The translations under genes were made by a program, and so were the position numbers. The notes beneath the pieces were generated by a model. It did no database searches and had not been told where the DNA came from. It worked only from the letters and a program-made list of their open reading frames with translations. A DNA stretch of 64,000 nt from an uncultured Gemmatimonadales bacterium (GTDB lineage: Bacteria > Gemmatimonadota > Gemmatimonadetes > Gemmatimonadales > GWC2-71-9). How positions within the stretch are numbered: position 1 is the first letter of the stretch; the number at the start of each line of letters is the position of its first letter. This document shows, in pieces, positions 4,692 through 27,703 of this stretch. The DNA is taken from contig CAWJIM010000019.1 of assembly GCA_963842945.1 (NCBI GenBank), positions 685,893-749,892 on the forward strand. The letters are read 5' to 3'.

Positions 4692-4956
4692 TCGATCTCC
4701 ACGCGGGTGTGAGGGTGCGGTAATATAGGCGTGCCTTCGACATACACCCACCGCGATGATTCCCGAGTGGCCGCTGGCGGCCGTGGAGTTGCGCAGTATG
4801 GAAGGGGTGCGGCCTGCCGGCGGCCTCCCCCGCCTGGCCATCGGCTTGGCGTAGGCGTTACACGGCTGAAACCTTCTTTTAGCCTGTATCGTACCGGCGG
4901 TATTGACGAAACGTAGGTCTCTCATACATTCGACTTACGACTTGGGAGATAGCGTC

Positions 4957-5433
4957 ATGACCGCCCCCGCTCTCGATCACATCTCGCGCCGCATCCTCCA
5001 GCTGCTCGCCGCCGACGGCCGCACCAGCTACCAGGCCATCGCCGACGAGATCGGCCTCTCGCGGCCGGCGGTCATGGAGCGGGTCAAGCGCCTCGAGGAG
5101 GCCGGCTTCATCCGCGGTTACCACGCCTCGCTCGACCGGTCGAAGTGCGGTCTCCCTGTCACCGCGTTCGTGGCCATCCGCTACCCCGTCTCCGAGCACG
5201 CCGGCGACGATCCGCAGATCCAGGCCCTCGCCGCCAACCCCCACGTGCTCGAGTGCCACCATGTGGCGGGCGACGACTGCTATGTGCTGAAGGTGGCCGC
5301 GCCCTCCATCGAGAGCCTCGAGGGCGTGCTGCGCGAGATCAAGCGGCCCGGCCACCCGGTGAGCACCCGCACCACCATCGTGCTCTCCACCGTGTTCGAG
5401 AAGACCGGCCTCGCGCCGGTGGAGGCGGACTGA
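4957..5433 (+). CDS. Lrp/AsnC family transcriptional regulator
   Basis: HTH (IGLSRPAVMERVKRLEEAGFIRGY) and ECHHVAGDDCYVLKV. Confidence 0.92.
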   Translation: MTAPALDHISRRILQLLAADGRTSYQAIADEIGLSRPAVMERVKRLEEAGFIRGYHASLDRSKCGLPVTAFVAIRYPVSEHAGDDPQIQALAANPHVLECHHVAGDDCYVLKVAAPSIESLEGVLREIKRPGHPVSTRTTIVLSTVFEKTGLAPVEAD

Positions 5434-11411: not shown

Positions 11412-12497
11412 TTACGCCACCGGGACGATCGGGTCCAGCAGATCCTCGAAGAAGTCGAACCCGCCGAGGAACACCAGATAGATCTCCTGGAGCGAGTGCA
11501 GCTCCTCCTCGCTCAGCGGCTCGCCGTCGGCGCCGGTGATCACCGGCTCAGCGCCCTGGGTCACGGTGATGGTCGCGAACGGATCGCCGTTCACCTCGAC
11601 GTTGTAGGTCCCGGCATTGTCGGCCCAGTTGCCGACGATCGTCACCGTGCCGTGCGGGCCGCGCAGCTCCAGGCTCGAGGACACGGCGCTGGTGTTCATG
11701 TTCCACTCTTCCTCGAGGTCCATCCGGAAGTTGCCGCGGGTCGGCACGCTGAGCGCGTAGTCGAACGTGATGATGTTTTCGGAATTGAGGTGCATGTCGA
11801 GATCGAAATTGACCCGGTCCTCACCGTTGCTCACGAACCCGGAGACGTTGATGGTGGCCGCAGTCTGGCTGGCTGTGGCGCCAACCGTGTAGTCGAGGTA
11901 GGTCACGTTGCCCGAGACCAGCTCGATCCTGATGCTGGCGGAATTCGTGGTCTGAGTGACCTCGACGTCGGCGTACCCGACTTCCTGCAGCGGCGTGACC
12001 GGCTGGCCGCTGATCGGATTCACCGTGTACACGATGAACCGCACCCCGTTCGAGGGCGCGCCGGTCCGGTCCGAGACCTCGTACTCCAGGGTCTCGGCGT
12101 TGCGGACGAAGGTCTTGCCGAGATGCTCCTCGAGAATCGCCGCCCGGCTCCCGACCGGCCGCATGCCGGCGGTCGGCACGGTGTAGAGGCGGGCAAGGGT
12201 GCTGGCATACTCCCGCGCGCCCGACTTGCCGGTCGCCATGATCTTGCTCGGCGCGGCGCGAAGGGCGACCGCCGCCGACGACTCGCCCAGCGTGGTGCTG
12301 ATCGCCGGCATGGCGCTCTGGAAGCCGTACATCGCGTCGCTCTCGTACGAGGCCTCGATCGCGTCGATGTCGGACGAGGTCCCCGCCGGATCGAACGGCG
12401 CGTCGGGAGCGGTGGAGTCGTTCCCACCGCAGCCGGTCATGAGGCCGATCAGGGCCACGACCGCGAGGGGTCGCATTGCGTAATGCGGGACACGCAT
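11412..12497 (-). CDS. Hypothetical lipoprotein
   Basis: Signal with lipobox LMTGC, beta-rich body, RBS GGAGG upstream. Confidence 0.75.
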   Translation of the reverse strand: MRVPHYAMRPLAVVALIGLMTGCGGNDSTAPDAPFDPAGTSSDIDAIEASYESDAMYGFQSAMPAISTTLGESSAAVALRAAPSKIMATGKSGAREYASTLARLYTVPTAGMRPVGSRAAILEEHLGKTFVRNAETLEYEVSDRTGAPSNGVRFIVYTVNPISGQPVTPLQEVGYADVEVTQTTNSASIRIELVSGNVTYLDYTVGATASQTAATINVSGFVSNGEDRVNFDLDMHLNSENIITFDYALSVPTRGNFRMDLEEEWNMNTSAVSSSLELRGPHGTVTIVGNWADNAGTYNVEVNGDPFATITVTQGAEPVITGADGEPLSEEELHSLQEIYLVFLGGFDFFEDLLDPIVPVA

Positions 12498-12655: not shown

Positions 12656-12784
12656 TTACTTCTTGGTCACCGGGAGGCCGGCCTCGTTCCAGGCCGTCCA
12701 GCCTCCCAGCAAGGCCCTGGCCTTCTTCCATCCTGCCTGACGGAGCTCTCGCGCCACCCGGGCGCTTGTGGCTTCGTCCTTTCA
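12656..12784 (-). repeat. Displaced 3' end of the antiporter-rhodanese gene, copy 3 (probable original host end, attR-like)
   Basis: Starts at TGA and encodes KDEATSARVARELRQAGWKKARALLGGWTAWNEAGLPVTKK*; 12714-12784 is identical to 24619-24689 (71 bp). Confidence 0.9.
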
Positions 12785-13393
12785 AATAGATGTTCCCAAA
12801 CCACAAGGATCGGTACGGGGTAAGTCGGTACGCTTCCGTTAGTTTCCGACAATGAACCGCGCTTCGGTCGAGACCGTTTCCTGTGCAAGCAACGGAGTAG
12901 CGGAGAGCAGCGGGCAGAACACCAGCAAGCTGGTTGATCTCACTAGCACTCCCGTTTGGGCGGTTGGCCTACACTGCTCCTGCCACCTTCGTGGGAACTA
13001 GGCGGGGTGACGTCGTTTGTGGCGCCCTGGAGCAAGGTGGACTTTCAGCCACGAACGGTCGCGGGACTCACGAGATGTCGCGGGGCGACCGGCCCATCGC
13101 GGCGATGGACCGGGCGGACCGACTGATGCTTGGAGCAGTAGCGGGGATCACGACCCAAACGTAGACGCCGTTCCACTTCTACGATGTGGCGGCCCAGAGG
13201 ATGGGGGTGCGGGAGGCGCGTCAAGTGCCCGAGCGAAGCGTCCCCGCGTTATCTCTAGAGCTTACCCTTGTTTCTGTACCAGCTACTTCGGGCGGCCCGA
13301 AGACTTACGAGTTCACCGTGATGCAAGGGAGAGTGGAGTTCCTTAACGAGAAACCGTTTTAGCCCTTAGCTGGCATTCAGCTCGAACCCACAG

Positions 13394-13422
13394 CGGAATC
13401 TACGGACCGAGGGTCCAATGGG
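13394..13422 (+). repeat. 29-bp direct repeat, copy 1 (copy 2 at 19428-19456)
   Basis: CGGAATCTACGGACCGAGGGTCCAATGGG occurs twice. Confidence 0.9.
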
Positions 13423-13476
13423 GTCTGGGAGTTTCATGATTGCCCTCCCTACCGGGTATCACCCGGCATTTCGGCC

Positions 13477-13878
13477 TCACTCCGGCGGGTGATGAGCCGC
13501 ATGATTGGTCGTGTCAGCCGTCGCATCAGGGCTCGGCATCGCCTTCCGCCCGGGTGCCGTTGAGTCTTTCATCATCCCCATCATGCCCCCACGCTCCATC
13601 ATCTGATGCATGCGCTCCTGCATCGCCTTCCGCTGAACGACTAGCTCGTTTATGACGGCCGCCATGGACTGCACCTTCTGGTTGCCGCTTGTCCGATTCA
13701 TCCGATCCACAAGGCTGTCGAGACGGCGGTTGAGGGAATCCATCATCATCATCGACATCTGATTCTTGCCCGCGATTTCACGATGACCATCAGGAGTCGA
13801 CGCCCCGGGCTGCTGCGCGGCAACCGTTGAGGCGCTCAAGACCAGAGCGGCGATGCCGCCGACTAGTCGTGACATCAT
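13477..13878 (-). CDS. Secreted Met/His-rich putative metal-binding protein
   Basis: Signal peptide (STVAAQ), MSMMMM and MMGMM tracts, HAAHH tail. Confidence 0.7.
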   Translation of the reverse strand: MMSRLVGGIAALVLSASTVAAQQPGASTPDGHREIAGKNQMSMMMMDSLNRRLDSLVDRMNRTSGNQKVQSMAAVINELVVQRKAMQERMHQMMERGGMMGMMKDSTAPGRKAMPSPDATADTTNHAAHHPPE

Positions 13879-13905
13879 TTGTAGCCTCCGATTCGGTTTC
13901 CCAGC

Positions 13906-14214
13906 TTACGTCTGGACCCGTGACCACCACACGTAGCCCCCCAACGCGAGCAGCAGCAGCCAACAGGTCCAGTACGCCCACACCGTCCAACGCGGTCTCG
14001 CCTCCCCCAGGGAAGTGTCCAGATGGTGCTTCTGGTACATGGCCAGCGCGTGCACCACTCCACCCACCACCAAGAGCGGTACCGCCATTGTCTCCAAGGC
14101 CTCCTTGAATAGCAGGGCGAGGCCAGCTCCGAGCACACCAGCACCTAGACCGCCAAGCAGCTCTGTTCGCGCTCGCTCGCCGATGTACCTGCTGCTGGTC
14201 CGAAGCACCGTCAT
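13906..14214 (-). CDS. Small membrane protein
   Basis: Three hydrophobic segments, RBS upstream, lies in the copper operon. Confidence 0.6.
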   Translation of the reverse strand: MTVLRTSSRYIGERARTELLGGLGAGVLGAGLALLFKEALETMAVPLLVVGGVVHALAMYQKHHLDTSLGEARPRWTVWAYWTCWLLLLALGGYVWWSRVQT

Positions 14215-14348
14215 ACGCGCCTCACCAAGGAATCGACGGAAACGATAGCTCGGTTCTCATGAAGAACCGGTGAAGGTCGTGCGAGACTACCTTCAACGGT
14301 CACAGCCCTCGGCTGCACGGAAACCCACTGCAGCAGAGACATTAGCGG

Positions 14349-16529
14349 CTAGATAGCCGAGCGGCGCAGCAGCTGGGCATTCACGGCCACGATGATTGTG
14401 CTCAGTGACATCAGGACTGCTCCAATAGCAGGCGAGAGCAGGATGCCTTGCCGTGCCAATACCCCGGCGGCAAGCGGGATCGCCACCACGTTGTAGCCTG
14501 CCGCCCACCACAGGTTCTGGACCATCTTCCGGTAGGAGGCCCTGCTGAGCCGCACGATGCGCGGCACGTCTCTGGGGATCGCTCCGAACCAGCACGATGT
14601 CCCCAGCCTCAACTGCGACGTCGGTGCCAGCGCCGATGGCCACGCCAACATCGGCCGAGACCAAGGCCGGGGCATCGTTGACCCCGTCGCCCACCATGCC
14701 GACCCTTTCACCGGCTCGCTGAAGTTCTTGAATCTTGTTGACCTTGTCTTGCGGCAAGACCTCGGCGAACACTGTGTCGATGCCCAGCTCGGCAGCCACG
14801 GCCTCCGCCACCGGGCGTGCATCGCCGGTCAGCATCACCACTCTGATGCGCTGGTCGTGCAGCTCCTCGACCGCTGCCTTGGATTCCGGGCGTACCACAT
14901 CCGCCACGATGAACACGGCCAGCGCTTGCACGCTATGCTCACTGCCCGCTTCCTCGGCCAGGAAGATGGCGGCCTGTCCTCGCCTCGCGGCCTGATCCAT
15001 GGCTGTGCGCAGGGAATCGGGAACAACAACAGAGCGCGCCTTGAGCAACGCCGGGCCCCCTATCAATAGCGTCCGACCATCAACCCGCGCGCTGACCCCT
15101 ACGCCGGGAATGGCGCGGAAGTCGGTGGCTGGCGGCGAGACGATTCCCCGTTCCTTGGCAGACCGGACGATGCCCTGTGCGATGGTGTGCTCCGAGTCCC
15201 TCTCGACCGCTGCTGCCAGCTGCAGCGCCTCCTCGTCGGTAATGCCACCAGCGGTGGCGATGCCGACCACACCGAACTCGCCCCGCGTCAGGGTTCCGGT
15301 CTTGTCGAAGACCATGGCGGTGAGATTGCGGGCCTCCTCCAAGCCGCGCCGGTCCCGCACCAGGAGCCCAGCCCGTGCGCCCAGCGTGGTGGAGATGGCA
15401 ATGACCAGCGGCACGGCCAGGCCAAGGGCATGGGGGCAGGAGATCACCAGCACGGTGACCAGGCGCTCGACCGCGAACGCGGGATCGCCTCGGATGGTCA
15501 TCCACGCCACGAACGTCGCCGCCCCCGCGACGATGGCCGCAATGGTGAGCCAGAATGCCGCCCGGTCAGCCAAAGCCTGCGCCCGCGAGCGTGAGGACTG
15601 CGCCTGTTCGACCAGGCGCATGATGCCAGCGAGGGCGGTCTGTTCGCCCGTGCCGGTGACGCGGACACGTAGCGACCCAGCACCGTTTACCGTTCCGGCG
15701 ATCACACGGTCGCCCGGGCCTTCTTCACTGGTCGCGACTCGCCAGTGATCATGGACTCGTTGACCTCGCTCGCACCCTCCTCAACTACGCCATCGGCCGG
15801 GATACTCGCGCCGGGGCGTACCAGCACGAGGTCTCCGACCTTGAGCGCGCTGATCGGGACTTCCTCGACCTCCTCACCCGCCACTCGGAGCGCGGTGTTC
15901 GGCAGGAGCTTCGCCAGCTCACGTAGGGCACCCTGGGCCTGGGAAATCGACCGCATCTCGATCCAGTGGCCCAGGAGCATGATCGTGACCAGCGTGGACA
16001 GCTCCTCCCACAGCGGCATGCCCGGATAGCCCAGCGTCACGGCCGCGCTGAAGACGAACGCGACTGAGATGGCCAAGCCGATCAGCGTCATCATGCCGGG
16101 AAGCCGGGCGCGCAGCTCACGCCAGGCACCCTGGAGGAACACGAGTCCGCCGTAGAGGAACACCGCCGTCCCGAACACCGGCGCGATCCACTGTTGGCCG
16201 GGCAGATTGGGTGGTGTGTACCCGAGCGCCCGGGGCAGCATGTGGCCCCAGCACGAGCGTCGGAAGGGTGAGCGCCAGCGAGATCCAGAACTTGTCCCGG
16301 AACATCGCTACGCTGTGACCCGCATGTTTGTCGTGGCCTTCGTGCCCTGGATGCTCATTGTGTCCGCCGTGGCCCAGGTGGCCAGCGTGGCCTGTCATTT
16401 CTGGGTGTTCGGGGTGGCCCACCGCGACTGGCTCCTCGGCCATGGCACCGTGAACGTGATCATGAGCATGCCCCGGGGCGGTTGCCCATCGCCATTCCCT
16501 CCGGATGGCCGATCGGTGTGGTCCCTCAT
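14349..16529 (-). CDS. copB: Copper-translocating P1B-type ATPase, CopB-like (several frameshifts)
   Basis: His-rich N-terminus, [33 protein letters not shown] and MSLST motifs spread across frames. Confidence 0.9.
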
Positions 16530-17064
16530 GTCGCACTCATCTCCCTGGAAGTCTGCGCTCGGGCGCTCCCGATCCTGCCCCACGGCTTGTACACCGACAG
16601 TGCGGTGACGGTGAGCAAGACCAGAAGGCCACCCACCGCATGCACCACGAGCTGGATGCGCAACAGCCTGAAGTCGCCGGTGGACAATGTCGTGGCCACT
16701 GCGATTCGGGCCATGCGACTCACGTTCGGGATGTGCATCAACAAGACGCCCGTGGCGACCGTCGTCAGAACGAGCTTCGCCACGATCCAGTAGTGACGGA
16801 ACAGCCCCCACTCCGTCCCAAGTGCCTGAACGACTCCTGAGATCAGGGTGGCGAGGCTCGACGGAATGATGACAGCCCATCCAATCGGCTCCATGCTCCG
16901 ATAGGCGGCGCGTGCCATGTCGTCGTCTCGGCTGACGATGCCGACAACCGCGAGGGACAGGTAGCGGCAGCCGCGCCGAGCCAGCCAACCGATACGGTGA
17001 CGTGCGACGTCAAGACGAACTTGCGTAGGCGAGACGACATCATTCGTGGGCTCATAAGACTCAC
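16526..17064 (-). CDS. DUF2269-like membrane protein (frameshift near 16960)
   Basis: HVTVSVGWLG, WGLFRHYWIVAKL and LSVYKPWG motifs. Confidence 0.7.
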
Positions 17065-17105
17065 CTCAGTGCTGGTTCCGCACGGTAATGGTTAGGCTTG
17101 ACGGC

Positions 17106-18579
17106 CTACTCGTGCTCGTGATCGGGCATTACACCTCTGGGCATGCCCTCCTCCGGGTTCTCATCCCGATCTCCAGCGTGCGCCCGCTGCAGCAGCGTCG
17201 GCCGTAGCCGGACGTACAGCGCGAGGCCAGCAGGTGTGCGGGTGCCATAGGTGTCCTTGAGATCCTGGGGCACGAGGTTGAGCGAGCCCCGGAGACCCAG
17301 GCCGAGACTCGCGCCGCCGTACTGCACGACCTCCCGCACATAACCGAGCACGAGGCTGGACACGTTGAAGCGGGTCTCTGGGTTGATACCCGGCACGACC
17401 AGCTCCTCGGCGCTTTTCTGTACCCACTCGGCCCGGCCGAAGATGCTGTTCCGCTGGTCGAGCTGCAGGTTGGTCTCCAACAGGAGGCTGTGCTCGAACC
17501 CCTGCGACGGCTCTCTCGGCACCGTGTGCTTGTTTGCGCCGTAGACCAGCGCGCTGGCCCAATCGCCATCGCGGGCGATTCGCCTGGTGTACAGGATAGA
17601 CGCACTGAGCCGGTGCTGGTTTTCGTCGGGGTGCAGCTCCTCGGGACTCTTGAGGTAACCGTAGCTGGCCGCCATGCTCCAGTGCGGGGTCGGATTCGCT
17701 GTCAATCGCCCGCCGTAGGAGTCGAGCGCGCCGAAGTCGAAGTCGTAGCGGTCGTCATCGGGCTCGCGGCCCTGGAAAAGCGTGCCTTCCACCTGCACGG
17801 TGCGCGTGAATACGCCCGCCGTGACGACACCGTAGGTAATGTGGGTCGCGTCTTGCCAATGGTGCCCAAGTGGGGCGAACGGGTCGTTCTGGGCCGATGG
17901 ACGGTGCATGTAGGCCACCGGCCCGATGGCGGGCTCGCCAACAGGGGCCGCGAAGATTGAGACGCCGAGATTCCTCCCGACGGGCACCTCGTAGCGCGCG
18001 GAAAGCTCCATGAACAGATCGTGCGGGTGCTGCCGATCCCGGAGCGGCTCGCCTTGGTACGACTCGCCGGTCTGAAGCAAGCAGCGGGTAGCCGCGAGCG
18101 CCGACGGTGAGCGGTTCAGCGCTGAGCATTCCATGCAGGTGGAGCATACCGCGCCCGACCGGACGCATGGCCATGAGCATCGCCCAGTTGGTGCTGCCGA
18201 CCTGGTCGTCACCCCGCACTGTGCCTTGGTGGTCGTAGTACAAGGCCACATCTCCATGGACCATCAGCGTCCAGCGGTCGGCCATGAAGTGGTAGGCACG
18301 CATCGGAGACGCGTCGGGTAGCCATGACGTGCCGGAGCCCATCCTGGTCATGGGAATACCGAGCGGGCGCGGCGGCATCCCCATGCCCGGCATCTGCCCG
18401 GTGTTGGTGGTGTCACGCATGGCCATGGAGTCGGCTGACGTGTCTGCGTGCTCGGGCTGGTGGTGATGCTCGTGCTGCTGGGCACCGGCCACGGACCGAG
18501 CCCAGAGCAGGGCCAAGGCCAGCATCAGGAGCGCGTGCGGGTGCCCGGCCGCTTTTCGCCTGGCCAGTCGGTCAGGCAT
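17106..18579 (-). CDS. Putative outer-membrane beta-barrel metal-handling protein (frameshift near 18080)
   Basis: Signal peptide, HEHHH and Met-rich N-terminus, SGTSWLPDASPM, DRQHPHDLFMEL, HHWQDATHI, amphipathic beta strands. Confidence 0.75.
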
Positions 18580-18581
18580 CG

Positions 18582-18644
18582 TGATCCTCCTAGTCGTGGT
18601 GACCCTGGTGCCCGTGCGGCCCAGGTGAGCGGACTAGGCGATCA
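18582..18644 (-). promoter_or_regulatory. RBS-sequestering hairpin linking the leader-ORF stop to the downstream gene
   Basis: mRNA UGAUC-G-CCUAGUC pairs with GACUAGG-AG-GAUCA, which contains the AGGAGG SD; inner CCUGG/CCAGG stem. Confidence 0.7.
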
Positions 18645-19035
18645 GTTGTGGGGGTGGAGTATCCGGTGGAGGAAACGGCGGAGTGGGCCTGCCGACGGGC
18701 GAGATCGACCGCCACCCGGTGGCTAGAAGGTCATCAACTGTCGCACGCGATGGTGGGACCGCCGTGCTGGACGACCCGGTGCATGGCGAAACCTGGGCGC
18801 ACTCGGACGCGGGACAGTGGGCGCACCCGTGATCGTGGCGCTGGCTCCAAGATTGAAGGTCGTGTTCGTGTGCCATCGAGGACGAGGCTGCATGCTGCCC
18901 GGCCCGCTCGTGTTGGGCGCAGTGGGGCCGTTGCAAGGCGTCCACCCCGACGCTCGGCGTGGCTACGATGCCCAGGGCGAGCATGAGCAGACGAAGGACC
19001 CGAGAGGGCCACGAGTTGGGTGTTCCGACCATCAT
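18634..19035 (-). CDS. Secreted His/Cys-rich leader protein (CutF/CruR/DUF2946-like)
   Basis: Signal-like N-terminus, HDHGCAHCPASEC, C-terminal PPPDTPPPQLIA. Confidence 0.6.
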   Translation of the reverse strand: MMVGTPNSWPSRVLRLLMLALGIVATPSVGVDALQRPHCAQHERAGQHAASSSMAHEHDLQSWSQRHDHGCAHCPASECAQVSPCTGSSSTAVPPSRATVDDLLATGWRSISPVGRPTPPFPPPDTPPPQLIA

Positions 19036-19451
19036 GATTGGGACCATAGGCGCACCGACAATAAATCGCAAATGGAGCACGCCACCCCGGTAGCGTCCGG
19101 TTTTGACTGTAACACCTCCTATCTGTAGGTTGGTGGTGGCAAGCATCCCCGCCGGGGAGGACCTATGGCAGGGGCCAACTGCGGTTGCACCAAGGGCTGT
19201 TGCGATACAGGGTGTTGCTGCGGTACCAGCGCCTGCGAGTGCGGGTGAGCGCGGCGGGCGACTGAGCGAAGGCCGGGGAGCGTCCCCTGCCTTCTTCCGT
19301 TCTGCTACTCCACCCGCGCCGTCGCGGGGTCCATGAGCGCGAAGATGTCCTTCACCGTCCAAACCCATAGGGCATCGCGCCCCGATGGCCACCGGGCGTT
19401 TTGTATAAGTCAAAACCGGACACCAACCGGAATCTACGGACCGAGGGTCCA

Positions 19452-19619
19452 ATGGGAGCAAGATCGAAGGGGAACCCACCCCGGAAGCGGGGACCGAAGC
19501 CAGACACCTTGGTCCTGCCCGGCAAGTGGGAGAAGAACGTCGGGAAGGCCCTCAAGAAGCCACCGCCCAAGGCCAGCTGGCCCAAGCCACCGAACAAGAA
19601 GGGCCGGGGCGGCAGGTAG
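19452..19619 (+). CDS. Small Lys/Pro-rich hypothetical protein
   Basis: MGARSKGNPPRKRGPKPDTLVLPGKWEKNVGKALKKPPPKASWPK; ATG lies inside the 29-bp repeat. Confidence 0.5.
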   Translation: MGARSKGNPPRKRGPKPDTLVLPGKWEKNVGKALKKPPPKASWPKPPNKKGRGGR

Positions 19620-19658
19620 CCCCGGCCTTCGTTTTGACTTCTTGCCTAGCCCTGTGCG

Positions 19659-19802
19659 TCAAGTACCTACTCCTGGTTTTTTCACTACTTGTAAACCCGC
19701 TTCGTTCCACGCGATCCAGCCACCGACCAGCGCTCTGGCCTTCCTCCATCCCGCCTTTCGGAGCTCTCGCGCCACCCGGGCGCTTGTGGCTTCGTCCTTT
19801 CA
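19659..19802 (-). repeat. Displaced 3' end of the antiporter-rhodanese gene, copy 2
   Basis: Starts at TGA and encodes KDEATSARVARELRKAGWRKARALVGGWIAWNEAGLQVVKKPGVGT*. Confidence 0.9.
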
Positions 19803-20010
19803 GGAGAACGATCTACTAACACCAAGTGTCCGCGGATCCTGCCCGTCGGCCTTGTACTGGATCGGGAGCGGCAGGACACGCGGATCGTCGGGCGTCGCAG
19901 GCCCACTTGCACGACCGGAAATACCTTTCCGCTTTGCTCTGGCCGCTGCCAATGCCCAGCACTATCCTTTCTCAACTTCCCATTCCGACGTCCAATGCGA
20001 CAGGCCCTGA

Positions 20011-22951
20011 GTGGCAGCGCTGCCTGACGACCTGCAGGCGGCACTCGCCGACCGCTACAGAATTGACCGCGAGCTGGGTCGCGGTGGCATGGCCACGGTC
20101 TACCTCGTCCACGACCTGAAGCACGATCGCCGGTCGCTCTCAAGGTGATGCACCCAGAGCTTGCCCCCTCCTCGGGCCTGAACGGTTCCTGCGGGAGATC
20201 AGGTTCGTGGCGCGGCTTCAACACCCCCACATCATCACCGTGCTGGACTCCGGCGAAGCCGCCGGGCAGCTCTGGTACACGATGCCCTACATACGGGGCG
20301 AGACCTTGCGCCAGCGACTGCGCCAGGAAGTGCAGCTGCCGGTTGAAGCGGCCGTGGACATCGCTCGGCAGGTGGCGCTCGCGCTCGACTACGCGCACCG
20401 CGAGGGGGTGGTCCACCGCGATCTGAAGCCTGAGAACATCCTCCTGACAGAAGACCAGGCGCTAGTCGCGGACTTTGGAGTGGCCAAGGGGCTGGAGGCA
20501 GGCGGCCGGGCGCAGCTCACCGAGACGGGGATGGCCGTAGGTACCCCCACCTACATGTCCCCCGAGCAAGCCAGCGGCGGGGCAGTGGATGCTCGCTCAG
20601 ACGTCTACGCACTCGCCTGCGTGCTTTACGAAATGCTCGCGGGCGAACCGCCCTACACTGGCTCCACGCCCCAAGCCATCTTCGCCAAGCGAGTCTTGGA
20701 GCCGGTGCCGCACGTGCGCACGCTGCGTCAGAGCGCGCCGGAAGGGGTCGAGCAGGCGATCACGAAGGCGCTCGCGACGGTCCCGGCGGATCGGTTCCAG
20801 AGCGCCGCAGAGTTCGCCCGGTCGCTCATGGTGGCACCTCCGACGGAGGTAGTGGCCGCCACTCCCGCCGCGCCTCAGGTTACTCCAAAGAGCGAACGGC
20901 AGGGAATGCCGCGCCGGTTCCTGGCTCTCGGCCTGGCGACGATTCTCGCCCTGGGAGCCGGGGGCGCGTTGCTGTTGCGCTCTAGGGCCACCCCTGCGGC
21001 GCTTGATGCTGACCTTGTGGCTGTCGCCCCGTTCGACGTACTCTCGCCCGGCCTTGAGCTGTGGCGTGAAGGTCTGGTGGATCTCCTGGCGCGCAGCCTC
21101 GACGGTGCGGGCCCACTCCGCACCGTCTCCCCGACGGTAGTCATCCGCCGGTGGGATGGCCGGGCGGACCGATCCTCAGCTGAGGCGCTCGCACGGCGCA
21201 CGGGAGCCGGACTCGTTATTTACGGGTCGGTCGTGCCCGAGAGCCGCGATTCGGTTCGGGTAACAGCCGCCGTACTCGACGCCGGACGCGCCGAGGCCGC
21301 CGCCGAGGCCGAGGTGCGCGGCCCCGCCGACCAGCTCGCACGGCTCGGCGACTCCCTTGCCCTGCGATTGCTCGCTGAGCTTGGGCGCGCCCGACCGCTG
21401 AGCGCGGCGCGCTCGGGCGGAGTCGGCTCGCGCTCACTGCCGGCTGTCCGAGCCTTCCTGCGGGGGGAACAGTGGTTTCGGCGCACCGCGTGGGACTCGG
21501 CCCGGGCGAGCTATGAACGTGCGGTTGAGCTGGACAGCACTTTCGCGCTCGCGTATTGGCGGCTCGGTGCCGTTCGCGACTGGCAAGATGGCTTCAGTGG
21601 ACTCCCTCTCGCGGGCCTACTATCGCCTCGCTGGCGAGCGCAACCACGGGCTCCCACCCCGAGAGAGCCTGCTGATGACGTTCGACTCATTGAAGGGGAC
21701 CCTCCTCGACGAGGGCTTTCTCTCCGACTCAGCCTCGGAGCAGCAGGTGCAGCGGCTGTTCCGTATTGCCGAGGAGACGACGCGACGGTATCCGAATGAC
21801 CCAGAAGGTTGGGTGGCGCAAGGCGAGGCGGGAGTGCACTTCGGTGCGGGCCGAGGGGTAAGCGATGAGACAACCCTCAGCGCGTTTGCCCGTGCCATCG
21901 CGTTGGATTCGGCCTACGCTCTGAGTTACATCCACGCATGGCAGCTGGCAGCGTCGCTCGACGACTGGCCTACGGCCCGCCAGTACGCACTGGGCTTTCT
22001 CGCCCTACGCCCGGGGCGGAAAGAGGCGATCGCTGCGCGGACGGCCATCCACATACTCAATCGGCCCCCGGCGGGCGAGGTAGGCCGCCTGTTGGACACA
22101 ATTCCCCTGCACGTCCTTATCGCTGTCGTCAACGCGCTTCGTAGCCACCACCGACTCCGAGGAGGTCGGGGTGGCAGTCGGTCGGGCGTTCGTCGCCGCG
22201 CCGCCGACCCCAGACGGGCCAGAACTAGATAGAGAGACTCGGGAGGCTCTTTTTGCGGCCACCCTCGCCTATCGTGGGCATCTTCGGGAAGCCTCCCGGC
22301 TCCTCGCCCGCCACCCCGGGGTCATGGCGTGGGGTACGTTCACCGAGTTGGCGCTGCTAGGGCTGATACCGGCGGACACTGTGGACGCCGTGTTCGAGCG
22401 CCAACTTCGCGAGGGTCCTACTCGCCATGCGATCGGGCACCACCTCCGTCTCGGTTTCCCGCTTCCATGGTGGGCCGTTAGGCGCGACACTACCAGGCTC
22501 AAGCGCTATGCCTCGCGTCTCAGCTGGCGAGGACCGGCGGAGAACGTGCCGCTATTGGATCGCTATCTGCATGCGGCCTCGAACGCCTACCTGTCGCTTG
22601 CCCGAGGCGACTCGGCGGAGGCGGCGGCTCGCTTCCAAGCCCTCCCGGCAACGGTGGGAATGGTGTGGTACGAGCGGCTGACGCTCGCACGCTTGCTTGC
22701 GGCGCTCGGGCGAGAACGCGAGGCACTGGACGTGCTAGACCGCGAGTTCCCGTCTGGGGCTTGCCATCTCTGCACGTGGCACGTGGGCCTTGGAGCGGGC
22801 GCGCTTGGCCGAGAAACTGGGCCAGCCCGAGAAGGCCCGTCACTGGTACGGCTTTGTAGCCCGGCTGTGGCGGCACGGCGACCCTGAGCTGCGGCCTGCC
22901 GTGGACGAAGCGCGTGAGGCGCTGACGCGACTTACCGGCGAGCCGCAGTGA
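20011..22951 (+). CDS. Ser/Thr protein kinase with TM and TPR-like C-terminus (multiple frameshifts)
   Basis: [38 protein letters not shown]. Confidence 0.85.
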
Positions 22952-22998
22952 CCTGTACCTGCTTCTTCGTTGGGTTTGGCTACTGCATCGCGTGCCCG

Positions 22999-23595
22999 CT
23001 ACTCAGGCTCGTGGCCGTGATGCAAGGATCGCAGAGGGGGCTGGAGCGCCATGCGGCGGCGAAGCTCCATCAAGGCGATCATGAGATCGCCGCTCTTGGC
23101 CATCTGATCTCTTGCGATCGTCCGTTGTCGTTCGGCCAATGAGCGCGATTCGGCGGCATCCGCACGCGCTTGCCGCGCCTGCCGACGCATCGCTTGCGAG
23201 CTGAGGACCAGCGGCGCAAGCGTTCGCACCAACTCCTCTGGCTCGAACGGCTTCCGCAGGAAGGGCACCGGAAGGAGGTCGGGTGGGAGGTCGACCGCTG
23301 CCGACATGGCCACGACGGGTAATGCAGGGCGGCATTCCATGAGTACCGCGATCAATTCGGAGCCGGATACGACCGGCATCTTCAGGTCGGTCAGGACCAC
23401 GTCGAGCAGCTGAGCCTCGTCCCGCTCAATCACCCGAATGGCATCCTCGCCGTCGGCGGCCTCGATCACGGAGGTTCGCTCCAGCTGCAGCATCCTGCGG
23501 AGTGATCGGCGCAGCGATGGATCGTCGTCCACGATGAGCAAGGTCGCTCCGTCGGGGATCTGGAAGCACGTGGTCTGGGTATCCACATTGCTCAT
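22999..23595 (-). CDS. Response regulator (receiver plus coiled-coil tail)
   Basis: LLIVDDD, VLTDLKMP, FLRKPF. Confidence 0.85.
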   Translation of the reverse strand: MSNVDTQTTCFQIPDGATLLIVDDDPSLRRSLRRMLQLERTSVIEAADGEDAIRVIERDEAQLLDVVLTDLKMPVVSGSELIAVLMECRPALPVVAMSAAVDLPPDLLPVPFLRKPFEPEELVRTLAPLVLSSQAMRRQARQARADAAESRSLAERQRTIARDQMAKSGDLMIALMELRRRMALQPPLRSLHHGHEPE

Positions 23596-23976
23596 AATGC
23601 GCTTCCGTGTCCAAGCTGCCCTGACCACCAAAGTATGCACTCGGTGCCCCGGATGCACAGATGTGTTGCCGATCACAGAGGGCGGGCGGAAAGGCTCTAT
23701 CTATGGCCACATGTCGGCAACAGACTCACCTTCCGATCCGCCCGACCGGTCCCGCGTTCTCCGCTGGTACCAGCGAGGATCTCCGCCAGCACTCCCGCAC
23801 GCTCCGCCAGCACGCACGCCGGCTGATCGAGAGCAGCCGCGAGCTTCGGGACCGCCTAGGCAGCTTCCTCAAGCCACCCCCGCCCACCCAGTCAGCCTGA
23901 CCCCCACGCTTCGCCGTGCGTCAGGGGCGGCCCGGAGACAGCGCGGATCAGATGATCCGCGTTTGTCCTTTCGGGG

Positions 23977-24369
23977 TCATGCCTCCCTTCGCATTGGTCG
24001 CTCCGCCATGGCCAGCGCCACTGATTCCAGCAGCGCCCCAATGCTGAACGGTTTGCGGAGCGTGGGCACCGCCTCAGCGTGCGGTCCGATGGGCCTGGCG
24101 AGATCGTCCAGGTGGAGGATGGGAAGATGGGGGAACAAGCGCCGCAAGTGGCCGATCAACTGTTCACCACTCATGTGCGGCATGTAGCTGTTGGTGAGGA
24201 CCAGATCGAACGAGATACCCGCCGTCTTGGCCGCCGTCAGACCTGCCTCGCCATCCCCTACTGCAACGACCTCGTAGCCCGCTTCCTCTAAGGCGCGCAC
24301 GATGAGTGCGCGGACGGCGGGCTCGTCGTCCACCACAAGAATGCGGGACGGTCGGTCGGTCGGCGGCAT
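23977..24369 (-). CDS. Single-domain response regulator with atypical phospho-site
   Basis: ILVVDDE and LRKPF present; DLVLTNSYMP has N where the phosphoacceptor D is expected. Confidence 0.8.
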   Translation of the reverse strand: MPPTDRPSRILVVDDEPAVRALIVRALEEAGYEVVAVGDGEAGLTAAKTAGISFDLVLTNSYMPHMSGEQLIGHLRRLFPHLPILHLDDLARPIGPHAEAVPTLRKPFSIGALLESVALAMAERPMRREA

Positions 24370-24551
24370 GGGCCGGTCGGTGCGGTCAGGGCAAGTAATC
24401 CGATATTCTACGCCGGACACTCAGCGCCGTCCATGGCCCAAATTGCCTATACCTCCCGGGCCGACAGCCCCAGCCCTAGTGCTCTACTGCACGCCGCCGA
24501 AGGGTGCAGTAGAGCACAAGCGTGTTCAATCCCGCTCAAACCAAGGGGATC

Positions 24552-26168
24552 CTATTCTGCCGGTTTGGCAGACACTGGTAACCCCGCCTCATTCCACGCG
24601 TTCCAGCCACCGACCAGCGCCCTGGCCTTCTTCCATCCTGCCTGACGGAGCTCTCGCGCCACCCGGGCGCTTGTGGCTTCGTCCTTTCAGGTACAGTAGA
24701 GGACCAGTGTCGCGTCGGGATCGAGCCTCCGCTCCCGCGCGAGGCGCACCGCGTCGTCGGGCGGCATCCGGATCGCGTCGCGGGCGATCGCGGCGGAGTC
24801 GCGATAGCTCCGCTCGGTCCGCACGTCCAGCAGGGTCACCGGCTCCCCGCGCTCCTGCAGGTCGCGAAGCTCCTCGATGGTGATCTTCTCCGAAAGCTGC
24901 GGCGCTTCGCCCGGGGCGGGCCCGAACGAGATCTCCTCCGGCTTCTCCGGCCGGGGCGCGGGCGCCGGGGCCTGCTCCGATCGCGCGCGGCGGAGAAAAA
25001 TCGCGATGCCGGCGCCGTGCACCACCACCGATAGCAGGACCACGAGGCAGGTGATCTGGAACAGGCGCACGGATCCCTCGACCCCCGCGAACACCGGCAG
25101 CAAGGCCAGGAGCAGCGTGCTCAGGCCGCGCGGCCCGAGCCACGCGATCAGCCGCCGGCTCCGCGGCTCGACCCCGCCCAGCCGCAGCACCGGGATCAGG
25201 ACCGCCGTGCGCAGCCCCAGCGCGAGCACCGCGAAGGCCAGCGTCAATCCGTCCGCCACCTGGAAGCCGGTCCAGATCACCGAGGCACCGAACGCCACGA
25301 ACGTGAGCAGCAGGAACATCTCGGCCGAGGCTTCGCCGTAATCCAGGAAGCAATCGCACAGCTCCACGTCCATCGCGGCCACCATCAGCCCGCCGGCGAA
25401 CGCCGCGAGGAACCCGCTGCCGCCCACCGACTCCGCGGCCGCGAACGCGGTGAACGCCACACCCAGCGCGTAGAGCGACTCGTAGTCCCGGCGCACCCCG
25501 ACCTTCGATCGCACCCGGTCGAGGAGGGCGATGGCGACGTAACCCACCCCCACGCCCAGCGCCGGCCCCAGGATGAAGAGGCCCATCGCGCGGCGCGAGA
25601 CATCGGCATCGGACGCGCCTCCCGCGCCCAGGGCCAGACTGGCGAGCACCACGACGGGGAGGAGGATCACGTCGTTGCTCCCGCTCTCGAGTCGGAGGGC
25701 CAGGCGTGCGGGGGGCGGGAGCGCCGGACTCCGGACCAGGGTCCGCAGGAGGACCGGGTCGGTCGAGGCCAGCGCGGCGCCGAGAATCGCGGCGCCGGCG
25801 GGCGGCAGGCCGAGCAGGAGCCAGGCGGCGAGGGCGATGAGCGCGGCCGGCAGGATCGTGCCCGGCCCCAGGATGAGCAGCGCGAGCCGCCGCTGCTCCC
25901 GCACTTCGCCGATGTCGACGGAGATGGCGTCGCTGAACAGCACCAGCACCAGGGCCAGCGTGGCGAGGACCTCGAGCGACTCCGACTCGAGCGAGAACTC
26001 CACCACGCCCAGACCGGCGGGGCCCAGCATGGCGCCGAGGAGGAGGAAGATCGCGACCTGGGGCACGCCCGACCGCTCGACCGCGCCCGACAGCAGCGAG
26101 GCGGCGATGATGACGACGCCGATGAGCGCGAGCGCGGCGACGAAGGGATCGTGGAACATGGTCCTCAT
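24552..26168 (-). CDS. Cation:proton antiporter (CPA1) fused to a rhodanese domain; probable selenoprotein with UGA at 24687-24689
   Basis: ASTDPV, LESGSND, WLGPRG; rhodanese LLDVR...LVLYCT-(TGA)-KDEATSARVA...ALVGGWNAWNEAGLP stays in frame to TAG at 24552. Confidence 0.88.
24659..24689 (-). promoter_or_regulatory. Bacterial SECIS-like element after the in-frame UGA
   Basis: GCGCC-CGGGU-GGCGC hairpin whose loop starts 22 nt after UGA, with G at loop position 2. Confidence 0.7.
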
Positions 26169-26220: not shown

Positions 26221-27703
26221 ATGCCCACGAGCGAGCCGACCGCCACCGCCATCCTGCTCACCATCTGCGGAATCCTGCTGCTGGTGAGCGTGCTCTCCAG
26301 CCGCGCGTCCCAGCGGATCGGGGTCCCGATCGCGCTGTTCTTCCTCCTCGTCGGCATGCTGGCCGGGTCCGAGGGGATCGGCGGGATCCCGTTTGCCGAC
26401 TACCGGCTCGCCTTCCGCATCGGGGCGGTGGCGCTGGCGCTCATCCTCTTCGACGGCGGACTCAACACCCCGCTGGACGTGGTGCGCCGAGTCTGGGCTC
26501 CGGCGGGCGTTCTCGGCACGGTCGGGGTCCTGCTCGTCGCGGGGCTGGTCGCGATGGTGGCACGGCTGGGCGGACTGCCCTGGCCCGCCGCGCTGGTGCT
26601 CGGGGCCATCGTCTCGTCCACCGACGCGGCCGCCACGTTCGCCGTGCTTCGGGCCAGCGGGCTTCAGCTCAAGCGGCGGGTGGCCGCGACGCTGGAGGTC
26701 GAGTCCGGCGCCAACGATCCCGCCGCGGTCATCCTGACCACCACGCTCGCCTCCAACCTCCTCGGCGCCGGGGCACCTCGGCCTGGGCGAGATGCTCGTC
26801 GAGATCGTCACCCAGCTGGTGATCGGGGCCGTGGTAGGCATCGGCGCCGGCTACGCCGGCCGCGCGCTCATGGCCCGGCTCCAGCTGATGACCGGCGGCC
26901 TCTACCCGGCGCTGATGCTCGCGTTCGGCTTCCTCTCCTTCGGGGTGGCAACGCTGGTCGAGGGGAGCGGGTTCCTGGCGGTGTATGCCACGGGGATCGT
27001 GCTCGGCAACGGTCCCCTGCCCTATCGCGCCGGTCTGCTGCGCATCTTCGACGCGCTCGCCTGGCTGGCCCAGATCGGGATGTTCCTGCTCCTGGGGCTG
27101 CTGGTGTTCCCCTCGCGCCTGGGCGAGATGGCGGGACTCGGGCTCGGCATCGCACTGCTGCTGGCGATCCTGATCCGGCCGCTGGTCGTCGCGCTCTGTC
27201 TGGCACCGTTCCGCTATTCGGCACGGGAGATCGCCTTCATCGGCTGGGTGGGCCTCCGCGGCGCGGTGCCGATCGTGCTGGCCACCTACCCGGTGCTGGT
27301 CGGTGCGCCGGGCGCGGACCGGATCTTCCACCTCGTGTTCTTCATCGTGGTGGTCGGCGCCATCATCCCCGGCGGCACCGTGGCCTGGGCGACCCGGCGC
27401 CTCGCCCTCGAGTCGCCCCAGCCGCCCGCGCCGCACGCCCTCCTCGCCATCGAGTCGCGGGTGCCGCTCGAGGGCGACCTGATGTCCTTCTATATAGACG
27501 ATGCGCTGGTGGTGTGCGGGCTGAGGCTGGACGAGCTGGATTTCCCCGAGGGCGCCGCGGTCGCGCTCATGGTCCGCGGGGACCGGCTGGTGGCGCCCAG
27601 GGGCAGCACCCGACTCGAGCCGGGCGACCACGTGTATGTGGTCGCCCAGGAGGAGGACCGGCCGTTCATCCAGCTGATGTTCGGAAGGCCGGAGGAGGAT
27701 TGA
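26221..27703 (+). CDS. Potassium/proton antiporter NhaP2/CvrA-like with TrkA-C domain (frameshift near 26775)
   Basis: GSEGIGGI, LFDGGL, SSTDAAA, ESGANDP, WVGLRGAVPIVLA. Confidence 0.9.

Follow-up and report, generated by a model that had tools for sequence, protein, structure and literature searches.

The 64,000-nucleotide stretch of DNA analysed here (the window) carries a widespread, real and unannotated selenoprotein with an unusual insertion history in its own genome. Judged from sequence conservation, the in-frame UGA at codon 494 is almost certainly decoded as selenocysteine (Sec) by means of a SECIS element lying just 3' of it, and the predicted product is a 538-aa CPA1 antiporter with a cytoplasmic C-T-U rhodanese domain. 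Two DNA blocks of 4.9 and 7.0 kb have very probably entered in tandem at the Sec codon or the SECIS, each swapping in a 3' end with UGA, SECIS and reading frame. Taken as a whole, with a proposed redox gating step added to the recoding and the insertions, this explanation is given a probability of about 0.5. The gene and its surroundings comprise the following features, in window coordinates.

24552..26168, minus strand: full gene encoding the CPA1 antiporter-rhodanese selenoprotein of 538 aa, the UGA counted as Sec
24687..24689, minus strand: in-frame TGA, predicted Sec494, at which the repeated segment begins
24990..26105, minus strand: CPA1/NhaP membrane domain, PF00999, residues 22-393
24564..24890, minus strand: rhodanese domain, residues 427-535, NF041203-like, active-site loop C492-T493-U494
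25350..25358, minus strand: C271-D-C273 motif where helix 268-296 begins; aligns with PaNhaP H10 at its cytoplasmic end
24644..24683, minus strand: predicted bacterial SECIS, with apical stem 24670-24666 / 24660-24656, loop 24665-24661 and lower stem
24552..24618, minus strand: probable replacement 3' end of the antiporter gene, differing from the empty-site relative from +72 on
26221..27703, plus strand: divergent NhaP2/CvrA-like antiporter with TrkA_C domain, frameshifted as assembled

The frame runs from 26168 (alternative start, ATG at 26159) to 24552 on the minus strand and contains a single internal stop, the TGA at codon 494 (24689-24687), followed by 44 further codons and a TAG. The first-pass annotation had placed this TGA, after LVLYCT, in the middle of a rhodanese fold. 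In the 538-aa read-through product a domain search places a rhodanese match at residues 431-527, and the AF2 model contains a complete rhodanese fold (pLDDT 92.6, pTM 0.89) C-terminal to a transporter part of 13 helices. Contigs of independent soil runs (X1 record 8, X4 record 31) span the TGA and differ only at other listed positions; pieces of the RNA run X15 cover parts of the antiporter, and no listed piece reaches the TGA. The NhaP2/CvrA-like gene next door also adjoins the selenoprotein gene in many congeners. Window genes at 14296-16330, 20120-22884 and 26221-27703 are frameshifted as assembled, and these frameshifts are probably assembly errors, since three DNA runs carry a one-base deletion at 14578.

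Comparison with homologs provides the main evidence for recoding. At the column of Sec494, 124 loci from many phyla gave 112 TGA, 6 Cys and 6 unparsed cases; the 112 parsed TGA loci amount to 81 distinct sequences, with some genomes present twice and kin not independent. Neither TAA nor TAG occurs among the 118 parsed loci. In the relatives, 22 of 30 loci (the present one included) could be parsed and every one has TGA, and a separate metagenome set of 79 loci holds 23 fusions with TGA and 2 with Cys. On the tree the Cys forms make up six distinct groups, which lie within or next to TGA forms. Database proteins, by comparison, mostly end at YCx: 119 of the 120 best matches do so, and so do 85 of 113 proteins in a second homolog search, in which 25 of the 113 are of the full-length CxC form. 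The names given to close homologs in the database point to Gemmatimonadales. Thus the Cys/TGA pairing and the truncation by standard annotation that the first-pass annotation had foreseen were both found, and the two contrary outcomes that it had named, homologs closing with TAA or TAG and a lack of conservation 3' of the TGA, were not seen in these loci.

The sequence past the TGA is conserved both as protein and as RNA stem. The hairpin GCGCC-CGGGU-GGCGC occupies +17 to +31 after the TGA and sits on a lower stem, with its loop starting at +22 as stated at first pass. Its five stem pairs are intact in 112 of 112 TGA loci, against 7.7 expected from synonymous codon resampling based on each gene's own usage (own Python test), and the stem is paired in one of the six Cys loci. 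Compensatory changes were seen from C-G to T-A (4 loci) and from G-C to A-T (10 loci); two pairs have changed on both sides, one of these at synonymous positions, and the serine codon within the stem is always AGY. The folding energy compared with shuffles is not significant (z -0.65 to -0.96), so that the case for the SECIS rests on conservation. The SECIS pattern was matched in 86 of 103 genus genomes, a tally that takes in four genomes marked unpublished, and the reversed control yielded 0 matches.

Among genomes of unstated completeness, selA was detected in 22 of 23 hand-picked TGA-form genomes vs 2 of 6 Cys-form genomes. The four genes whose absence the first-pass annotation would have held against Sec, selA, selB (G-domain and C-terminal domain), selC (tRNA-Sec) and selD, are all present in the own genome, a bin that is 87% complete and 6% contaminated. 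As assembled, selA and selB contain frameshifts, and their contig is not that of the window; selB scores below its model cut-off. On the window's own contig, selD (G000:C19:381780-382700) is itself a selenoprotein gene with an in-frame TGA in a GAG-U-ACK motif. The bin contains two tRNA-Sec genes, the UCA-anticodon tRNAs scoring as tRNA-Sec, and two tmRNA genes. A full second antiporter-rhodanese copy is found on contig C21 (G000 C21:318631-336325) in the empty-site arrangement. It was rejected as a paralog, the whole region being syntenic and 70-81% identical to the window; given the 6% contamination and the duplicated tRNA-Sec and tmRNA genes, C21 probably represents a co-binned congener. 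For the same contamination and the repeated region, some of the Sec machinery genes may belong to that congener.

A scan of GTDB with subfamily patterns confirmed at least 488 loci. Among the 80 that were inspected, 73 carry TGA and 6 carry Cys, and a contig end cuts the remaining one. The taxa among these listed loci include Chloroflexota, Acidobacteriota, Nitrospirota, Syntrophobacteraceae, Binatia and Actinomycetota, as well as Gemmatimonadota, Planctomycetota, Kofleriaceae, Eisenbacteria and Gammaproteobacteria. Thermosporothrix hazakensis (L104), Ktedonospora formicarum (L117) and Acidobacteriaceae KBS 96 (L129) are among the carriers of the TGA form. The fusion has been kept over about ten phyla, and within the window's own phylum the gene is patchy (24 of 301 genomes). 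No conserved gene neighbourhood, redox genes included, was found across the 80 loci. At the locus L052 (genome G099) an arsR/arsM-like cluster, named by eye, lies downstream of the gene, and another stop, possibly a long-read error, breaks the tail past the TGA. On the tree, the fused antiporters with CxC form one clade of 88 tips (support 0.97); here the locus cut by the contig end (L074) is labelled TGA, and two of the 80 loci are omitted for want of a usable segment. One protein, P0175, carries the fusion on a long branch without the membrane CxC and without the ND ion-site motif, and is possibly a non-transporting derivative. Three others (P0147, P0149, P0289) join the same CDCF antiporter to an AhpC/TSA-like start, which breaks off at RGHW, possibly at a Sec codon. 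They branch at the base of the fused clade, and one cluster member is named Anaerolineae. This fusion may represent a second Sec domain. DNA of the AhpC/TSA type was found in none of the 79 metagenome loci and in none of the 10 loci parsed among the best 12 from 401 Chloroflexota genomes.

The transporter half resembles CPA1/NhaP antiporters in sequence and fold. It scores 126 bits with PF00999 (cut-off 26.2) and is closest to PaNhaP (4cz8) both by profile (E 2e-33) and by fold (E 4e-11). The ion-site residues D80, T136-D137, E161-S162, N165-D166, R320 and R347 are kept, with PaNhaP E73, T129, D130, S155 and D159 corresponding to D80, T136, D137, S162 and D166. The protein stays under every NCBIfam antiporter equivalog cut-off, NhaP2/CvrA (PRK05326) and TIGR00831 included (148.5 vs 355, 133.8 vs 309, 50.7 vs 279.6). 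What sets it apart is the C271/C273 pair. The CxC is present in 120 of 120 close matches, in 34 of 35 fused representatives in a column-based count, and, among metagenome loci, in 24 of 24 scorable fused vs 0 of 46 scorable stand-alone proteins; a few full-length stand-alone relatives (P0164, P0217, P0267, P0197, P0212) also have it. Because the fused proteins form one clade, the co-occurrence of CxC and fusion reflects shared ancestry rather than independent co-evolution, and on the aligned sequences the CxC is a clade signature kept across distant phyla.

In a profile alignment C271 and C273 fall on PaNhaP 287 and 289; the register here comes after a low-posterior insertion and could be wrong by several residues. 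In PaNhaP the cytoplasmic end of H10, with Glu290 and His292, lies at the dimer interface and acts as an allosteric relay, and an engineered H292C disulfide lowers activity by 60% (PMC4381880). The alignment of C271/C273 near this relay suggests a mechanism in which the CxU loop sets the redox state of the pair and so gates exchange, a proposal that stands at about even odds. In this view a thiol/selenol switch would set the rate of an otherwise ordinary ion exchanger. Oxidants or sulfane sulfur would react with the C-x-U loop, and the loop would exchange with the C271/C273 pair; this pair would lie at the cytoplasmic end of the helix that corresponds to PaNhaP H10 at the dimer interface. A disulfide made or broken there would lock or free the dimer, and this switch would tie pH and ion homeostasis to the redox state. 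Docking of the antiporter and rhodanese of a Cys-form homolog (L070) gave a score of 0.01 vs a mark of 0.32, which counts neither for nor against the switch.

Two other functions of the selenoprotein appear unlikely, to a similar degree. CxC and CxU motifs are possible metal ligands, and C271, C273, C492 and U494 could act as ligands of soft metals or metalloids (Cu, Hg, As, Zn); the bound element would regulate the exchanger or be passed to it for export. The P-type ATPase cluster within insert 2 and the arsenic-type cluster after the gene in G099 would fit such a role, and PMC13188914 connects the majority of transporters with Sec to resistance against metals or metalloids. However, the site for alkali cations is preserved, the alignment puts the Cys pair on the interface helix and not in the ion pathway, metal genes form no conserved neighbourhood, and the inserts are specific to the own genome.

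The second possibility is a working sulfur or selenium transferase that is merely membrane-anchored, or whose reaction yields protons or ions that the antiporter clears, with no gating. C492 occupies the canonical rhodanese position after strand 487-491, and there are weak matches to GlpE, MoeB and ChrE rhodaneses, the GlpE-type thiosulfate sulfurtransferase score being 18 bits vs a cut-off of 102. Thiosulfate sulfurtransferases have a single-Cys loop, whereas here a second Cys or Sec stands at +2, and the fusion has been kept across some ten phyla together with the matching membrane CxC. The best match of the domain is instead NF041203 (E 4e-26, profile positions 21-126 of 126), with 91 bits (87.6 in a second run) vs a cut-off of 115, i.e. 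the same domain type but no formal member. It corresponds to the CxU 'form 3' rhodanese, NF041203, of PMC13188914 and to COG0607 form 2 of PMC9312934. The Sec domain is therefore an already catalogued family, and the antiporter fusion is a new architecture for a known Sec domain.

The repeated segment that begins at the TGA leads to the history of the locus, for which the following features are relevant.

19803..24551, no strand: putative insert 1, repeat period 4887 bp, GC 0.666
19659..19802, minus strand: displaced 3' end no. 1 (TGA, SECIS, open frame)
19428..19675, plus strand: IS1595-type relic with 29-bp repeat, 55-aa ORF 19452-19619 and terminal sequence 19652-19675
12785..19658, no strand: putative insert 2, repeat period 7018 bp, GC 0.646
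12656..12784, minus strand: original 3' end, now displaced, with all 129 nt as in the gene end of G053
11412..12497, minus strand: putative lipoprotein gene, no Pfam match, directly following the antiporter gene in empty-site relatives

The other two copies in the window, spaced at 4887 and 7018 bp, are matches of 118 and 107 nt; each starts from the TGA, and the DNA upstream of it is unrelated. The first-pass annotation had taken them for copies of the segment and their TGA as an argument against a sequencing error. The TGA is present in both, but they are displaced gene ends and not gene copies; the argument itself is right for a different reason, namely that the copies are insertion products. 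The relative G053 represents the empty site: its gene is 97% identical over 1538 nt, and its end matches the outer copy in 129 of 129 bases. In many relatives the lipoprotein gene follows the antiporter gene after about 250-550 bases. Compared with the G053 gene end, the present end has 23 differences, none of them before +72, and the middle copy has 28; most changes in the replacement ends are synonymous (9 synonymous/3 non-synonymous and 12/6). In all likelihood the present gene end is a replacement supplied by an insert that kept TGA, SECIS and frame. The simplest reading would be two successive integrations that crossed over somewhere from the TGA to about +44 and in each case restored the end of the selenoprotein.

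Both inserts have a lower GC content (0.646 and 0.666) than the flanks (0.693 and 0.729), and pieces of both occur at near identity in independent soil runs. Insert 1 carries two receiver-domain genes and a Ser/Thr kinase-TPR gene, the latter with a frameshift in the assembly. In insert 2, 29-bp direct repeats enclose hypothetical genes and a P-type ATPase that seems copper-type from its motif. This exact 29-bp repeat (13394-13422 and 19428-19456) is found on both sides of the ATPase cargo and at no other place in the genome, and the block is possibly a nested insertion. The last codons of displaced end no. 1 overlap the IS1595-type end, which adjoins the middle copy where an integrase would be expected and may mark the loss of that gene. 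In five congeners (L219, L220, L222, L225, L226) the same IS1595-type end (19652-19675) lies just upstream of an Lrp-like regulator gene (about 4870-5430 in the window), which suggests a preferred target site.

Flanking direct repeats, a restored target gene and an empty site in a relative, as expected of an integrated island, are all present. It is nevertheless conceivable, with rather low probability, that the orphan copies are an assembly artefact of concatenated strain haplotypes, or stem from IS1595 activity or homologous recombination and not from site-specific integration. Orphan copies exist in 1 of 103 genus genomes: neither they nor the same insertion site were found in the other 102, mostly fragmented assemblies, and no displaced ends lie downstream of the gene in 18 relatives. 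No integrase was recognized in either insert or among the 17 ORFs scanned, and of four PF00589 matches in the genome none is in the window. An IS1595-type end adjoins one copy, with no IS1595 transposase in the own genome. No contig of the soil runs bridges an insert junction, four runs of short contigs contain no joint skipping the inserts, and no viral contig has the SECIS pattern or the 29-bp repeat. Against an artefact, any two copies show 18-28 differences over 129 nt, most of them synonymous, both start from the TGA, the outer copy is the empty-site allele, and the near-identical pieces of both inserts come from independent soil runs. Insertion sequences make short target duplications, not in-frame replacements of 130 bp.

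Site-specific integration and redox gating can be joined in a wider and more tentative reading, held to be less likely than not. The clade over about ten phyla would consist of selenium-based, redox-gated exchangers with a disulfide at the helix-10 allosteric site, made and broken by the fused CxU rhodanese or possibly by a peroxiredoxin-like domain in the basal branch; in addition, the Sec codon and SECIS, the gene's least changeable DNA, would serve integrative elements as an attachment site much as tRNA genes do.

The insertions also amount to a natural experiment, in which incoming DNA twice rebuilt about 40 codons past the 'stop', unnecessary if the protein ended there. That the TGA is a true stop, a pseudogene lesion, a sequencing error or a Trp or Cys codon under a variant code is extremely improbable: the database proteins ending there, the several frameshifts in the assembly, the insignificant folding z-scores and the broken G099 tail are outweighed by a column with TGA or Cys and never TAA or TAG in 118 parsed loci, a covarying stem, the TGA on independent contigs, many homologous genes that end with TGA as a true stop, and UCA-anticodon tRNAs of the tRNA-Sec type.

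The bacterial selenoproteome hereby gains a secondary ion exchanger, with at least 488 GTDB loci matching its subfamily patterns, and one that gene callers cut in mid-domain. With a Cys pair near the allosteric site of PaNhaP, a redox control of pH and ion homeostasis becomes open to direct tests, and the naturally occurring Cys forms need no Sec machinery for their expression. JGI automatic names for some Cys forms already read 'antiporter/rhodanese-related sulfurtransferase'. A literature search found no paper on the fusion and none on integration at a Sec codon; the fusion may be listed in supplements or in BSepDB records. The word 'antiporter' is absent from the main text of PMC9312934, PMC2398784, PMC12013277, PMC5029168 and PMC13326102, and both 'antiporter' and 'exchanger' have 0 occurrences in that of PMC13188914. 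The Sec transporters named there are a P-type ATPase, YeeE/YedE, SaoP/B/X, SO_0444 efflux and mercuric transport proteins; these share with the present protein a predicted Sec in a membrane transport protein, and none of them is a cation/proton antiporter.

Several known systems resemble parts of this arrangement. Islands in tRNA and tmRNA genes integrate in the gene's 3' part and restore the target, and e14 in icd and SXT in prfC reportedly restore the 3' part of the gene in the same manner. Common to these islands and the present locus are a displaced original end at the far boundary, a supplied replacement end and tandem accretion; here, in contrast, the block starts from the Sec codon and includes the SECIS, no integrase is left, and the arrangement was seen in a single genome. 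NF041203 (rhodanese_LYCAU) has the fold and the CxU loop in common, in the form LYCTU of the LYC[AT]U type, but is a protein of about 126 aa, whereas here the domain is the C-terminal part of a 13-helix transporter. Profile, fold and ion-binding residues are shared with PaNhaP (4cz8; PMC4381880) and NhaP2/CvrA (PRK05326), from which the protein differs by the Cys pair near the H10 site and by the Sec-rhodanese tail that replaces TrkA_C or other domains. KefC/KefB, represented among the fold matches by the structure 8by2, offers a parallel to the architecture as a whole. It belongs to CPA2, and its KTN domain binds glutathione non-covalently, with neither Sec nor rhodanese. It is likewise a cation/proton antiporter governed by a fused cytoplasmic domain that senses thiol chemistry.
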